A DNA stretch of 44,441 nucleotides, taken from IMG/VR virus record IMGVR_UViG_2778261530_000005. One strand, 5' to 3'. This document shows positions 7,697-18,317 of the stretch, one piece after another. Under the pieces are notes generated by a model, which saw only the letters and a program-made list of their open reading frames with translations, did no database searches and was not told the origin of the DNA. The DNA is from a virus. Taxonomy: Duplodnaviria > Heunggongvirae > Uroviricota > Caudoviricetes. Both the position numbers and the translations under genes were made by a program. The number at the start of each line of letters is the position of its first letter. The stretch's first letter is position 1.

Positions 7697-8091
7697 AATT
7701 ATCTCCATTTTTACAAATGAATTTTGTCGATGCGGTGCCTGGTGCCTCCAGGTGACGTTAACCAGTTAACAATTAACGCCGGATAATCCACCCATAACAC
7801 TGATGCTTTTAACTGTGCCGCGTGCGCTTAGCCGCATTCACCGCATCACAAAATTCACTTTAAAAAGGGGCGGCAGGGCAGCCACGGAGTAGAACTGATG
7901 CCGCCAAAGACTAGACACAGCAATGTCGTTATTTACAACCGGAGGCGCACTCCCACCATTTAAATTTAACAGACAAGACCGACTCTTTATGAATACCGGA
8001 AATGCGCCTTCGTGTTGTGCGCCTGTCTTTTTACCACTTCAGGCTCGGTGGTATACTGGAGTTCTCACACAACCAGTAATAAGGTATTCCT

Positions 8092-8286
8092 ATGGATAAT
8101 AAAGACAAAGCCTGGCTACTTGCTTTAGCTTTCAGCATCAGATCGCAGCGAGAAACAACTCATCAAGAATTTTTCTCGGAAATCGAGAATGCTGAGAATG
8201 AGTTTTTGTCACTACTCAATGAACGTGATGCTAAAAAAAGCGCCGATTCACTTAAGGCGTGGGCGAAACTAGGCTCTTCAAAATAA
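8092..8286 (+). CDS. Hypothetical small protein
   Basis: 64-aa ORF downstream of a strong -10-like element (TGGTATACT, about 8044-8054); no recognisable family. Confidence 0.25.
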   Translation: MDNKDKAWLLALAFSIRSQRETTHQEFFSEIENAENEFLSLLNERDAKKSADSLKAWAKLGSSK

Positions 8287-8470
8287 TTGCTTCTGTAGCG
8301 GCATGAACAACTGTTTTTGCCGCCTCTTCAACTTCCTTGTCTGGACGACCAGCCTTTACTTTTTCTGCAATGACCTCCAGCACAGTTGGAAGAACCTTGC
8401 TAATAAGCATGGCTGCCACATCTTTGCTGCACAATTTACCGTTAATAACAACCAGATCTTCACCAACCAT
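8252..8470 (-). CDS. Hypothetical small protein between kil and immunity regions
   Basis: 72-aa ORF (or 52 aa from the internal Met); position corresponds to small ydaF/ydaG-type genes in Rac. Confidence 0.3.
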   Translation of the reverse strand: MVGEDLVVINGKLCSKDVAAMLISKVLPTVLEVIAEKVKAGRPDKEVEEAAKTVVHAATEAIILKSLVSPTP

Positions 8471-8661
8471 CTTTTTTCCCCTTAACGCCGGGTGGCGGAA
8501 CTAAAACCTACAGCGCCGTGCTGTTCTTGATGGAAATATTAGTAACGCGGATATTTTAAGTCAACAGTATGGCGTATGATATTTTTGATTTGGTAACTAT
8601 GTAAATGTTTTTTCAAGGGAAAAATATTAGTTATACAGCTGATTTGCAGAAGTTATGGCAC

Positions 8662-8693
8662 AAAAAAAACCGACTAAGACGTCGGTTTTTTTG
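8662..8693 (-). terminator. Bidirectional rho-independent terminator downstream of the repressor gene
   Basis: AAAAAAAACCGAC…GTCGGTTTTTTT: hairpin flanked by A-run and T-run. Confidence 0.5.
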
Positions 8694-8718: not shown

Positions 8719-9180
8719 CTACTGGTTACGTTTCTTTAGTGCCAGCATGTTCTCGAAGGCTTCCTCGTAGAGCTTGTTTAGTCCACGTAGCTGGTTAAGG
8801 AGTTTGGCTTTTTCTGACGCAGGTAGAATCTCGAAGAGGTTAAGTAACTCTGCCTGTTCTTCATTGACCAGCCTCCATCCGTTGCCTGAAAAACTATCAT
8901 CATAAGTATCTGATGATCTTACATAATTCATTAAGTCTTTAAGGTCTTCTCGAATGTCCTCTGGTTTTACCTTTAACAGAACCGCAAATTTTAGCGCAGC
9001 GTCGGTATTTACCGGTATCTTGCCGTTCAGATACTGGCTAACGGTGCCTTGAGATTCGAATCCCAACAACTCAGCCGCCAGCTCTTGAGTCAGCTTCAGC
9101 TCTTTTTTTCTTGCATTCCATGCGGCTTTTAAATTCTTGCTCGCTTCTGGAGTTGCAATCACTTCGCGTGTTTTTTTCAT
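8719..9180 (-). CDS. Prophage repressor (HTH, RacR-like; no LexA-type peptidase domain)
   Basis: 153 aa with helix-turn-helix (LTQELAAELLGFESQGTVSQYLNGK), divergent from the cro-like gene across an operator-containing intergenic region. Confidence 0.7.
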   Translation of the reverse strand: MKKTREVIATPEASKNLKAAWNARKKELKLTQELAAELLGFESQGTVSQYLNGKIPVNTDAALKFAVLLKVKPEDIREDLKDLMNYVRSSDTYDDSFSGNGWRLVNEEQAELLNLFEILPASEKAKLLNQLRGLNKLYEEAFENMLALKKRNQ

Positions 9181-9186
9181 ACATAG

Positions 9187-9214
9187 AGTTTATTTGTTTT
9201 ACCAATATTATCAA
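9187..9214 (-). promoter_or_regulatory. Candidate repressor-maintenance promoter giving a near-leaderless transcript
   Basis: On the minus strand TTGATA (-35), 16-bp spacer, TAAACT (-10), ending 6 nt before the repressor ATG. Confidence 0.35.
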
Positions 9215-9216
9215 AG

Positions 9217-9255
9217 ATAGTCTGACTATTGATCTTTAAAATTAGCGGAGCTAAT
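9217..9255. promoter_or_regulatory. Two perfect palindromes, candidate operators
   Basis: ATAGTCTGACTAT (9217-9229) and ATTAGCGGAGCTAAT (9241-9255), overlapping the -35 and -10 of the divergent promoters. Confidence 0.4.
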
Positions 9256-9257
9256 AT
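9229..9257 (+). promoter_or_regulatory. Candidate PR-like promoter for the cro-like operon
   Basis: TTGATC (-35, 9229-9234), 17-bp spacer, TAATAT (-10, 9252-9257), about 30 bp upstream of the cro-like ATG. Confidence 0.45.
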
Positions 9258-9287
9258 TTGCTCGAGGCATAACGTAGAAGGTTGGCT

Positions 9288-9563
9288 ATGAACTTAAGAG
9301 ACTATTTAAAAGAGAAACATATCACCCAGCTACAGTTTGGGAAGCTAACGGGTTTATCTCAGGTGCATGTAAGTCGAGTGCTGGGGGGCTATGAAAGATT
9401 CAGCCCTGAAAAAGCATTACGTGTTGCTGAAGTAACGAATTTCGAGGTTACACCTCATGAACTCCGGCCTGATATCTACCCGAATCCGACCGATGGTTTA
9501 CCTGTTGGATGTAAGGCTAACACACAAAATGCACAGGAGTTGATTCATGAAAATCAGGCATGA
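9288..9563 (+). CDS. Cro/YdaS-like HTH regulator
   Basis: 91 aa from MNLRDYLKEKHITQLQFGKLTGLSQVHVSRVL…; HTH; first gene of the rightward early operon; GAAGG ribosome-binding site. Confidence 0.6.
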   Translation: MNLRDYLKEKHITQLQFGKLTGLSQVHVSRVLGGYERFSPEKALRVAEVTNFEVTPHELRPDIYPNPTDGLPVGCKANTQNAQELIHENQA

Positions 9564-9969
9564 GCACATCGAATCAGTGCTGTTAGCCCTGGCCGCTGAA
9601 AAAGGGCAGGCATGGGTAGCCAATGCAATTACTGAAGAATATCTGCGCCAGGGGGGCGGCGAATTGCCCTTGGTACCAGGCAAGGACTGGAATAATCAGC
9701 AGAACATCTATCACCGTTGGTTAAAAGGTGAAACGAAAGCGCAAAGGGAAAAAATTCAGACACTGATCCCTGCGGTTCTGGCAATTCTTCCGCGCGAGCT
9801 GCGTCACCGACTCTGCATCTTCGATACCCTGGAACGCCGTGCATTACTGGCGGCGCAGGAAGCGTTGAGTACGGCAATTGATGCGCATGATGATGCAGTC
9901 CAGGCCGTTTACCGGAAAGCACATTTCAGCGGTGGTGGGTCGCCCGGTGATTCTGTCGTAGTGCATTGA
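9547..9969 (+). CDS. YdaT-like protein (putative toxic partner of the YdaS-like protein)
   Basis: 140 aa, same length and position as Rac YdaT; overlaps the cro-like gene. Confidence 0.5.
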   Translation: MKIRHEHIESVLLALAAEKGQAWVANAITEEYLRQGGGELPLVPGKDWNNQQNIYHRWLKGETKAQREKIQTLIPAVLAILPRELRHRLCIFDTLERRALLAAQEALSTAIDAHDDAVQAVYRKAHFSGGGSPGDSVVVH

Positions 9970-15146: not shown

Positions 15147-15356
15147 AAACGGTTTGCGGGAAAAGGGGAGTTAAGTAAAATTGCTGCGGGTGCTTGAGGC
15201 TGTCTGCCTCGGGCATGCCACTGTAAGGCAGACAGAGAAAAGCCCCGGTTAACATTACGCGTCCTGCAAGACGCTTAACATTAATCTGAGGCCATATCTA
15301 TGCTCTACACACATAGGTTAGCCTCTTACGTGCCGAAAGGCAAGGAGAAGCAGGCT

Positions 15357-15512
15357 ATGAAGCAGCAAAAGGCGATGTTAATCGCCCTGATCGTCATCTG
15401 TTTAACCGTCATAGTGACGGTACTGGTAACGAGGAAAGACCTTTGCGAGGTACGAATCCGAACCGGCCAGACGGAGGTCGCTGTCTTCACAGCTTACGAA
15501 CCTGAGGAGTAA
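15357..15512 (+). CDS. Hok/Gef-family type I toxin (HokD/RelF-like)
   Basis: 51 aa MKQQKAMLIALIVICLTVIVTVLVTRKDLCEVRIRTGQTEVAVFTAYEPEE: single transmembrane helix plus conserved Hok C-terminus; AAGGAG ribosome-binding site. Confidence 0.75.
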   Translation: MKQQKAMLIALIVICLTVIVTVLVTRKDLCEVRIRTGQTEVAVFTAYEPEE

Positions 15513-17435: not shown

Positions 17436-17461
17436 CTCAATCTGTTATCCGGGGCTATATT
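17432..17461 (+). promoter_or_regulatory. Candidate late promoter PR'
   Basis: TTGACT (17432-17437, overlapping the Q stop codon), 18-bp spacer, TATATT (17456-17461). Confidence 0.55.
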
Positions 17462-17522
17462 CCTCACGCGCCAGCAAAATCTGGCGTCGGGATTGGCGTC
17501 CTGGATAGAGACCGCGACAGAT

Positions 17523-17548
17523 ACACGCCGCGAGCGTGTTTTTTATTG
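17523..17548 (+). terminator. Candidate tR' terminator, about 60-80 nt downstream of PR'
   Basis: ACACGC-CGCGA-GCGTGT hairpin followed by TTTTTTATT. Confidence 0.55.
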
Positions 17549-17705
17549 TCGTATGCACGCGCACATCTGAATTATGGTGGGCTGTGTGGGGGCGGAGAGA
17601 TCCGCGCCGGTCGGTTTCCCGGTTACGCCAACCCTGCACAGTTCACCACCAGATGATTGGCGTCGTCGGTGGTGAGTTATTAAGAAACCACCAGAGGGCG
17701 TCATT

Positions 17706-18317
17706 ATGACAACTCAAATTTCTGTTGAAACTCTCTCCCCGATCACCCATAACCAGATTCCTGTTATTACCACCGAACTTTTGGCGCAGCTTTACGGCAC
17801 TGAGCCGGTGCGCATTCGCCAGAATCATCATGAGAACAAAGTACGCTTCGTTGAAGGGAAACACTTTTTCAAAGTTGTTGGTAATGACCTTAAAGAATTG
17901 CGGGTAGCTTTAAACTACTCACAAAATTTGCGGGTTACTTTAAGTAACTCACAAAATTTGCAACCATCTTTAAGAGGGTTACAAATTTCCCCGAAAGCCC
18001 GCTCCCTCATCCTCTGGACAGAACGCGGAGCAGCCCGTCATGCCAAAATGCTCGAAACCGATCAGGCGTGGGATGTGTTCGAAAAGCTGGAAGACTGCTA
18101 TTTCAGACAAAAGGATCCGTCAGCGCCAGCTTCATGCCAGAAAAGTTACGACTCGCGAGTTCTCTGTTATCAGCGAGGCGGTGTCACTGTTTCCACAATT
18201 CAGTTGCGGGATGATGATATTGTTATTTCCCTTGAGTCATGGCTGGAACTGGCGAGAGCCAATGGTTGGTTTGTTGTTCGCAGAGATAAACTGGTGGAAA
18301 GGCTGATGCAGCTTTAA
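17706..18317 (+). CDS. ORF6N/Bro-N-like domain protein with an internal 10-aa tandem repeat
   Basis: 203 aa; N-terminal region resembles the ORF6N/antirepressor N-domain; contains three 30-bp in-frame tandem repeats; first gene of the late transcript. Confidence 0.5.
   Translation: MTTQISVETLSPITHNQIPVITTELLAQLYGTEPVRIRQNHHENKVRFVEGKHFFKVVGNDLKELRVALNYSQNLRVTLSNSQNLQPSLRGLQISPKARSLILWTERGAARHAKMLETDQAWDVFEKLEDCYFRQKDPSAPASCQKSYDSRVLCYQRGGVTVSTIQLRDDDIVISLESWLELARANGWFVVRRDKLVERLMQL

Follow-up and report, generated by a model that had tools for sequence, protein, structure and literature searches.

The gap at 9181-9287 between the divergent repressor and cro-like genes of a Rac-like lambdoid prophage is probably the right operator (OR) of an immunity switch built on the geometry of phage lambda. 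We favour reading its two perfect palindromes as OR2 and OR1, two versions of one operator family to judge by their sequences. The prophage makes up IMG/VR virus record IMGVR_UViG_2778261530_000005 (Duplodnaviria; Heunggongvirae; Uroviricota; Caudoviricetes), a stretch of 44,441 nucleotides that was analysed at its full length and is called the window here. A preliminary description of this DNA had recognized an immunity switch, and the analysis agrees: a lambdoid repressor gene and a cro gene flank a divergent pair of promoters, one like the lambda rightward promoter (PR) and one like its promoter for repressor maintenance (PRM). The immunity type is a fresh member of a well-known kind of switch, with an ordinary lambda-type OR made up of OR1, OR2 and possibly OR3.

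The first palindrome, ATAGTCTGACTAT (ATAGTC-T-GACTAT, 9217-9229), is a perfect 6-1-6 inverted repeat, and the second, ATTAGCGGAGCTAAT (ATTAGC-GGA-GCTAAT, 9241-9255), is a perfect 6-3-6 inverted repeat. Both lie exactly where the preliminary description had placed them, in what it gave as a 108-bp divergent region; the divergent layout held, while the gap measured 107 bp. When the gap was shuffled 5000 times with its dinucleotides preserved, two independent perfect palindromes (arms of at least 6, spacers of 0-5) appeared in 1.4% of the shuffles; among all 107-bp segments across the 44 kb the share was 1.1%, making the pair unusual, not overwhelming. Natural variation was examined in 55 near-identical prophages, a set of window-type alignable loci (window included) drawn from IMG/VR, Escherichia albertii and phage Rac-SA53, whose repressors are 97-99% identical. 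Both palindromes were perfect in only 3 of these 55, the first in 20 and the second in 26, and the perfection of the pair thus appears to be partly an accident of the window allele. The preliminary description had also suggested looking for each palindrome in the rest of the prophage; at up to three mismatches, the 44-kb window gave matches in numbers equal or close to those due to chance, and a close repeat was absent for both.

The TTGATC-17-TAATAT promoter that had been described as PR-like is present, with a predicted start near 9264-9265. The form TTGAT(C/A/T)-17-TAATAT is kept in all relatives except the most distant one, the Serratia locus L013, whose repressor is 57% identical and whose PR -10 position lacks TAATAT; the experimentally mapped PydaST promoter of Rac also has a TAATAT -10 (PMC11879457). 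The second palindrome occupies the PR spacer and runs into the PR -10, a placement absent from the preliminary description. On the minus strand, TTGATA-16-TAAACT, whose -10 ends 6 nt before the repressor ATG, was likewise recovered.

Read as 5-3-5 sites, the two palindromes both fit WTAGY-N3-RCTAW (W, A or T; Y, pyrimidine; R, purine), with centres 25 bp apart. The half-site is roughly nAWnMGY (M, A or C), the central triplet is free, and exact matches to the 13-bp core in the 44 kb are limited to the two palindromes from which this consensus was derived. The shared register alone is weak evidence; it becomes convincing together with the geometry of the sites, a mirror pair at the leftward promoter (PL), cross-recognition among the sites and natural variation. 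The PL-like region aligns with the PR region, and equivalent promoters are found in relatives. Here, two left operator (OL) sites, OL1 and OL2, form a mirror-image counterpart of OR1 and OR2, with the same overlaps of the -10 and -35 (Table 1). To gauge cross-recognition, each of the four sites in turn was left out of a 17-bp matrix made from the other three and then scored with it among 44425 positions; the site left out ranked 13 (OR1), 160 (OR2), 14 (OL1) or 54 (OL2). Candidate OR3, which is outside the set used to build the matrix, scored 7.9 and ranked 45 of 44425.

The spacing of the sites matches that of lambda closely. Relative to the repressor ATG, the window centres (9199, 9223 and 9248) are placed at -19, -43 and -68; for the annotated lambda OR3, OR2 and OR1 the distances from the cI start are -19, -42 and -66. 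Measured from the predicted PR start the same centres lie at -65, -41 and -16, and those of lambda at -64, -41 and -17. The start-to-start distance is 84 bp in the window versus 83 bp in lambda, and as 17-mers the OR2 sites of both phages overlap the PR -35 by 3 nt. In short, the window OR copies the lambda layout almost base for base, with other letters.

Natural variation follows the same sites. Variable positions in the gap fall within the first palindrome (9218, 9221, 9222, 9225 (A29/G26) and 9228), within the second (9246 (C26/T29) and 9247-9250) and around the PR start (9260-9267), and the rest of the gap is invariant. The same aligned positions vary in OR1, OR2, OL1 and OL2, namely the centre triplet, the flanking Y/R and positions 2/12 (OL1 is polymorphic at the centre triplet and R; OL2 at position 2, Y, the centre triplet and R), and the TAG...CTA core is fixed across the 55 loci. 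Sixteen of 35 common non-coding polymorphisms lie inside the 13-bp cores of the four sites (p=3e-6 by Fisher test), every one of them at the variable classes of position just named, called soft here, with 0/24 at core positions (p=3e-6); OL alone, as a semi-independent test, gave p=4e-6. Counted by position, common polymorphisms affect 16/28 soft positions, 9/462 repressor-gene positions and 0/24 operator core positions, in prophages whose DNA-binding domains are identical. The operator variants are reshuffled into 40 haplotypes, including symmetric double changes (ACAGTC-T-GACTGT, ATAGCC-T-GGCTAT and ATTAGT-GGG-ACTAAT). Among 20 loci with an identical repressor and an identical N-terminal 60 residues of the cro-like protein there are at least 15 operator combinations, indicating that this variation is tolerated by one protein pair. 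Half-site types also swap between sites, with ATTAGT occurring in OR1 and GGCTAT in OR2, and OR1 of an Enterobacter relative carries ATTTGT, the arm of OR3.

A second set comprised diverged relatives, with repressors 57-91% identical to that of the window. The gap measured 104-107 bp in all of them, and in the more distant relatives the operator letters shift with the recognition helices, with the layout kept. In L018 (73% identical) the PR site is ATACGC-GGA-GCTAAT and the PL site ATACGC-AGA-GCTAAT, sequences that are barely palindromic yet repeated at both promoters. The RM9088-type group (loci L001 and L073-L099), a second immunity type, has a repressor 70-71% identical to that of the window, with recognition helix QSTVSH versus QGTVSQ. 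Its cro recognition helix also differs from the window type, its promoter layout is identical, and its OR1, ATTA(A/G)T-AT(A/G)-(G/A)TTAAT, is very near the window type.

The preliminary description had taken the unlikeness of the two palindromes to suggest two DNA-binding proteins, for example the repressor and the cro-like protein; on this reading the second protein could also be YdaT, the product of the next gene. As perfect palindromes they do have different spacers (1 versus 3), their outer letters differ (ATAG in OR2 and OL2, TTAG in OR1 and OL1) in an O1/O2-type distinction that recurs at PL, and the module encodes three helix-turn-helix proteins. We nevertheless consider this explanation unlikely. 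The two sites have register and core in common, each is still found by a matrix from which it was left out, variation is tolerated at matching aligned positions in the two, and natural variants convert one half-site type into the other. Moreover, they occupy the positions of lambda OR2 and OR1, which are filled cooperatively by one repressor, and in prophage CP-933P the footprints of the repressor PaaR2 and of YdaS overlap (PMC8630535). A YdaT site was rejected for either palindrome, since both are unlike TTGATT-N6-AATCAA and the actual YdaT box sits elsewhere, at 9540-9557. The recognition helices of repressor and cro always change together among relatives, and natural recombinants pairing one repressor with a different cro were sought among the relatives and none was found; because the helices co-vary, the comparison cannot assign sites to proteins.

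It is distinctly unlikely that OR1 is the only true operator, as O1 of RacR would be in PydaST, and that the first palindrome is instead an activator or UP-like element, or a host-factor site, at the two -35s. In its favour, conservation among relatives, and from PR to PL, is highest for OR1-type sites; the 70% group has no palindrome at the OR2 position, and of the four sites OR2 has the worst leave-one-out rank. However, even that rank, obtained with a matrix from the other sites, places OR2 at 160/44425; OR2 agrees with the other sites in which positions vary and which do not, and two of the symmetric double variants (ACAGTC-T-GACTGT and ATAGCC-T-GGCTAT) arise there. The least likely explanation, that the palindromes are by-products of A+T-rich back-to-back promoters or of common descent of PR and PL, with the real operators elsewhere or non-palindromic, could draw on the shuffling frequency (1.4% is not vanishingly rare), on the loss of palindrome perfection in most relatives, on the part played by the -10 TAATAT in setting the right arm of OR1 and on promoter duplication as a source of the PR/PL likeness, but the TAG...CTA letters outside the promoter hexamers are invariant where their neighbours vary, site letters follow immunity type as position and the 6-3-6 layout persist, L018 repeats a non-palindromic 15-mer at PR and PL, and the geometry is within 1-2 bp of that of lambda.

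Several observations weigh against the reading of the palindromes as OR2 and OR1 of a lambda-type switch. The half-sites of OR1 and OR2 have 3/6 letters identical and one shared pyrimidine, which alone is not significant (p ~0.2, an estimate). The OL sites are poor palindromes, with distal arms ATCCGC and ATACGC, and in the RM9088-type relatives the sequence at the OR2 position, ACTGAT-ATA-GGTATT, is non-palindromic; this group also reproduces the polymorphism pattern only in part. The soft and core classes were defined after OR had been seen, and the centre of OL2 was chosen partly after its polymorphisms had been seen. The 55 loci are related to each other, so that the polymorphism p-values are optimistic. 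The PR-like promoter matches 8/12 consensus positions, under the threshold of the promoter scanner and so unreported by it, although it is conserved in relatives. For OR3 and the third left site, matrix rank is the sole evidence, and every step of the mechanism set out below is inferred for this immunity type from its sequence.

The preliminary description had proposed a near-leaderless repressor messenger RNA (mRNA), and here the comparison with relatives went further in its favour. All diverged relatives have a TAnnnT hexamer at a distance of exactly 6 nt upstream of the repressor ATG, in the forms TAAACT, TAAGAT, TAAAAT and TAGAAT across lineages, and the six bases between this -10 and the ATG vary freely. 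No Shine-Dalgarno sequence precedes the repressor ATG in the window or in the diverged relatives. With the -10 at -12 to -7, the predicted +1 is the A of the repressor AUG (9180), and the repressor mRNA is very probably leaderless. There is precedent for this in related prophages: the paaR2 mRNA of CP-933P is leaderless by 5'-RACE (amplification from the ends of cDNA) and N-terminal sequencing (PMC8630535), and the strongest racR promoter was shown experimentally to give a leaderless transcript (PMC9638921). The published transcript evidence for the two comes from 5'-RACE or primer extension.

According to the proposed mechanism, dimers of the 153-residue repressor would occupy OR1 and OR2 in the lysogen. 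Binding at OR1 would cover the PR spacer and -10, and binding at OR2 the -35, thereby switching off the rightward ydaS-ydaT operon. The dimer at OR2, 43 bp upstream of the repressor start, would be placed to stimulate the weak PRM-like promoter, whose transcript is predicted to start at or beside the repressor AUG and to be translated leaderless. A weaker third site (centre 9199, -19 from PRM) could provide negative autoregulation, and OL1 and OL2 would control the PL-like promoter likewise. After induction, the YdaS-family cro-like protein would most likely bind the same sites and lower PRM; by analogy with lambda and with the overlapping footprints in CP-933P, it probably uses the same operators as the repressor. 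Induction itself would probably proceed via an antirepressor, for which 17706-18317 encodes a candidate.

Table 1. Coordinates of the switch and of neighbouring features in the window.
Feature	Position	Strand	Details
OR1	9240-9256		17 bp; core TTAGC-GGA-GCTAA, centre 9248; in the PR spacer, overlaps -10; second palindrome
OR2	9215-9231		17 bp; core ATAGT-CTG-ACTAT, centre 9223; overlaps PR -35 by 3 nt; first palindrome
Candidate OR3	9191-9207		TATTTGT-TTT-ACCAATA, 7-3-7 quasi-palindrome, centre 9199, covers the PRM spacer; tentative
OL1	8537-8553		core TTAGT-AAC-GCGGA, centre 8545; overlaps PL -10 in the register of OR1 at PR
OL2	8562-8578		core ACAGT-ATG-GCGTA, centre 8570; 25 bp from OL1, abuts PL -35
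Possible third left site	8625-8641		TATTAGTT-A-TACAGCTG, centre 8633; matrix rank 61/44425; tentative
PR-like promoter	9229-9257	plus	-35 TTGATC 9229-9234, 17-nt spacer, -10 TAATAT 9252-9257
PRM-like promoter	9187-9214	minus	-35 TTGATA 9214-9209, 16-nt spacer, -10 TAAACT 9192-9187; scanner match
PL-like promoter	8536-8564	minus	-35 TTGACT 8564-8559, 17-nt spacer, -10 TAATAT 8541-8536; scanner match
Repressor gene	8719-9180	minus	open reading frame, 153 amino acids; ATG 9180-9178; identical start in the Prokaryotic Genome Annotation Pipeline (PGAP)
cro-like gene, YdaS family	9288-9563	plus	91 amino acids; Pfam YdaS_toxin and HTH_3; PHROG 35
Shine-Dalgarno AGAAGG of the cro-like gene	9276-9281	plus	6 nt before ATG 9288; invariant in 55 loci
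YdaT box	9540-9557		TTGATT-CATGAA-AATCAG, i.e. TTGATTCATGAAAATCAG; spans the ydaT start codon
ydaT (CII-like regulator)	9547-9969	plus	Pfam YdaT_toxin; PHROG 163, CII-like activator
Two-way intrinsic terminator	8662-8692	both	A8, ACCGAC-TAAGAC-GTCGGT, T7; read from sequence
Other Rfam RNAs	462-606; 2168-2346; 7868-7919; 15188-15362		

The distribution of polymorphism suggests, tentatively, that the soft operator positions, taken as non-contacted, and the bases between the -10 and the start of PR and PL are under diversifying or balancing selection, an idea we hold to be possible and far from established. If true, natural prophage populations would tune operator strength, and hence the induction threshold or cross-immunity, with the proteins untouched. 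Between the -10 and the predicted start (9260-9267 at PR; 8532-8535 at PL), both the 55 prophages and the RM9088-type group show polymorphic bases, next to spacer and 5' untranslated bases that are invariant. This polymorphism may tune promoter kinetics or form an extended operator flank.

Other sequences near the operators were considered. The 10-mer AAATATTAGT occurs twice, at 8534-8543 and 8622-8631; the second copy has a TAATAT -10-like hexamer and an operator-like site (centre 8633) in the OR1 register, with no -35, and could be either a relic or an operator placed distally. Upstream of PL there is another promoter-like site, TTTACA-18-TATCAT (8576-8605, minus strand); the common polymorphism at 8578 (G44/A5/T6) turns its -10 into TATTAT or the consensus TATAAT, and that at 8581 (A45/G10) does away with the first T. 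Three candidates were rejected. ATTATC-AAA-GATAGT (9207-9221), considered as a second 6-3-6 site, overlaps OR2 9 bp off its centre and has a matrix score of 2.8. GAGCTAA-TA-TTTGCTC (9248-9263), considered as a fourth palindrome, is broken by the majority alleles at 9249, 9260 and 9261. The third, centred at 8594 and considered as OL3 at 24 bp from OL2, agrees with the consensus at 7/10 positions with no matrix support, and the site at 8633 was preferred. The TTACCAA shared by 9199-9205 and 8590-8596, considered as a common element, differs in its register to neighbouring sites.

In the repressor, Pfam finds HTH_3/HTH_31 only and no Peptidase_S24 domain, and more distant homologues with PF00717 share the N-terminal half only. 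Residues 12-77 correspond to lambda CI 13-77 (phmmer against PDB: 3kz3, 1lmb and 1rio; E 3e-4 to 1e-3). Repressor residues Q32, E33, E37, Q44 and N52 are the retained equivalents, in the PDB alignment, of lambda Gln33, Glu34, Asp38, Gln44 and Asn52, residues of CI whose roles are textbook knowledge and which include the acidic Glu34/Asp38 patch. The C-terminal part is helical and resembles those of DicA and PaaR. The terminator at 8662-8692, which the terminator scanner missed, lies 3' of the repressor gene and would leave it monocistronic; the lengths of its A-run and T-run differ among relatives.

The cro-like protein matches PF15943 (YdaS_toxin) with 30.9 bits, barely over the cut-off of 30, and YdaT matches PF06254 with 42.5 bits (cut-off 21); their genes overlap at 9547-9563. 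The YdaT box has one mismatch to the published TTGATT-N6-AATCAA (PMC9986795, PMC11879457) and zero base substitutions across the 55 aligned prophages. In one IMG/VR locus, L064, a single-base indel breaks the cro-like frame, with repressor and operators intact; a sequencing error might account for this, or the prophage may be locked in lysogeny. Because the repressor lacks the S24 self-cleavage domain, an antirepressor is probably needed for induction. Rfam places a C4 antisense RNA, its a1/b1 targets and IsrK at 17455-17653, and the 203-residue protein encoded directly downstream of this C4/IsrK-type RNA (17706-18317) matches anti-repressor PHROGs with E=9e-93 and is a plausible candidate inducer for the window repressor.

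E. coli BCE049 has a prophage that matches the window at 100% identity. This prophage adjoins yebY and the ryeA/ryeB small RNA locus and carries int, xis, ralR, recT, recE, kilR, the repressor gene, ydaS, ydaT, ydaV and lysis genes. At >95% identity the repressor-gap-cro module is present in ~180/5426 complete E. coli genomes, and the same immunity module occurs in E. albertii, in a genome assembly of Enterobacter ludwigii and in Rac-SA53, an inducible phage. The Rac-SA53 repressor shares 98.7% identity with that of the window and is annotated dicA. A single-protein scan of genome contigs yielded 4 loci, and an alignment-based scan of viral contigs (IMG/VR) yielded 80. Our literature search found no paper describing this immunity type, and a search for Rac-SA53 returned an incidental mention only.

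Among the IMG/VR relatives, homology of the immunity module ends abruptly at ~8466-8477 in nearly all, with one locus aligning right through. The break, a mosaic recombination boundary, falls where the first gene of PL (8252-8470, minus strand) has its start codon. Rightward of the module, similarity runs on into ydaT, which is common to many other immunity types. Besides the C4 and IsrK RNAs, Rfam finds the host SraC/RyeA and SdsR/RyeB just outside the integrase gene (attachment region), RalA, DicF and sok; DicF is on the minus strand inside the PL operon and sok adjoins hokD. No known Rfam RNA falls within 9181-9287.

Among known systems, the DicA/DicC immunity region of the Qin prophage (PMC3441716) shares with this switch a C-terminal helical segment of the repressor (ELLxLFxxLPxSE..., 38% identity over 42 residues). 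The DicA operator Oc, TTGTTAGT-CATA-ACTAACAA, also holds TTAGT/ACTAA half-sites; its centre, however, is even (4 nt), and the N-terminal domain of DicA is like that of P22 C2. Against the NCBIfam DicA model (NF007257) the window repressor scores 34.7 bits where the cut-off is 101, and it is therefore not a DicA.

Rac of E. coli K-12 (PMC9638921, PMC11879457, PMC5700373) shares the backbone genes recE, recT, kilR, ydaT and ydaV, with ydaT 92-95% identical at the DNA level. Its operators, (T/A)TAGGC-n3-GCCTA(T/A), are inverted repeats with a 3-nt centre as in the window, and O1, in the PydaST spacer against the TAATAT -10, occupies the same place as the second palindrome. In contrast, the half-site of the window is one base shorter (TTAGC versus TTAGGC), and no TTAGGC, the RacR half-site, occurs in the gap 9181-9287, so that the n3 layout is the same and the half-sites differ. 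RacR O3 overlaps the racR start codon, the YdaS of K-12 is only 26% identical to the cro-like protein of the window, and RacR has no detectable homology to the window repressor (21% in a forced gapped multiple alignment).

CP-933P of E. coli O157:H7 (PMC8630535, PMC9986795) is similar in having a short intergenic region (97 bp), a small helix-turn-helix repressor without a peptidase domain, a PRM-type promoter whose repressor mRNA is leaderless (in the window, predicted to be so), YdaS as cro and a YdaT box TTGATT-N6-AATCAA at the ydaS/ydaT junction. An OL/PL set is present in CP-933P too, and YdaS leaves footprints there that overlap those of the repressor (PMC8630535, PMC9986795). It differs in its operators, four 18-bp repeats with GTTTAGTAA where the window has 17-bp WTAGY-N3-RCTAW sites, and in its paaA2-parE2 toxin-antitoxin pair, which is missing downstream of the window repressor gene, where a terminator follows. 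In place of PaaR2 the comparison used a PaaR-type repressor of an O157:H7 strain, which was 24% identical to the window repressor over 108 residues (pairwise E=9e-6), mainly in the C-terminal part. Judged by these alignments, the window repressor is not a homologue of RacR or PaaR2 in the strict sense.

In layout the switch is like lambda OR itself. Both systems have divergent repressor and cro genes ~100 bp apart, back-to-back PR and PRM promoters (the PRM transcript being leaderless in lambda and predicted to be so in the window), odd-length 17-bp sites with a central base pair, OR1 over the PR -10 and OR2 at about -42 from PRM, and a mirror operator set at PL, and the site centres agree within 1-2 bp with respect to both transcription starts. 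The N-terminal domain of the window repressor is homologous to CI 13-77. Unlike lambda, the sites read WTAGY-N3-RCTAW and not the TATCACCGC type, and the third site is weak and on the left side displaced. The repressor lacks the S24 domain for RecA-dependent cleavage and is not a CI of the LexA/S24 family, the cro protein is a YdaS-family helix-turn-helix protein without the lambda Cro fold, and YdaT replaces CII. The general picture of such switches is unchanged; the one slightly unusual feature is that, with constant proteins, polymorphism gathers at particular operator and discriminator positions. The analysis supplies testable operator and promoter coordinates for this immunity type, and helps to link the lambda paradigm to the work on Rac and CP-933P, where operator definitions remain unsettled. 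The lambda OR layout appears to have been kept here, even though the C-terminal domain of the repressor differs and YdaS and YdaT supply the functions of cro and cII.

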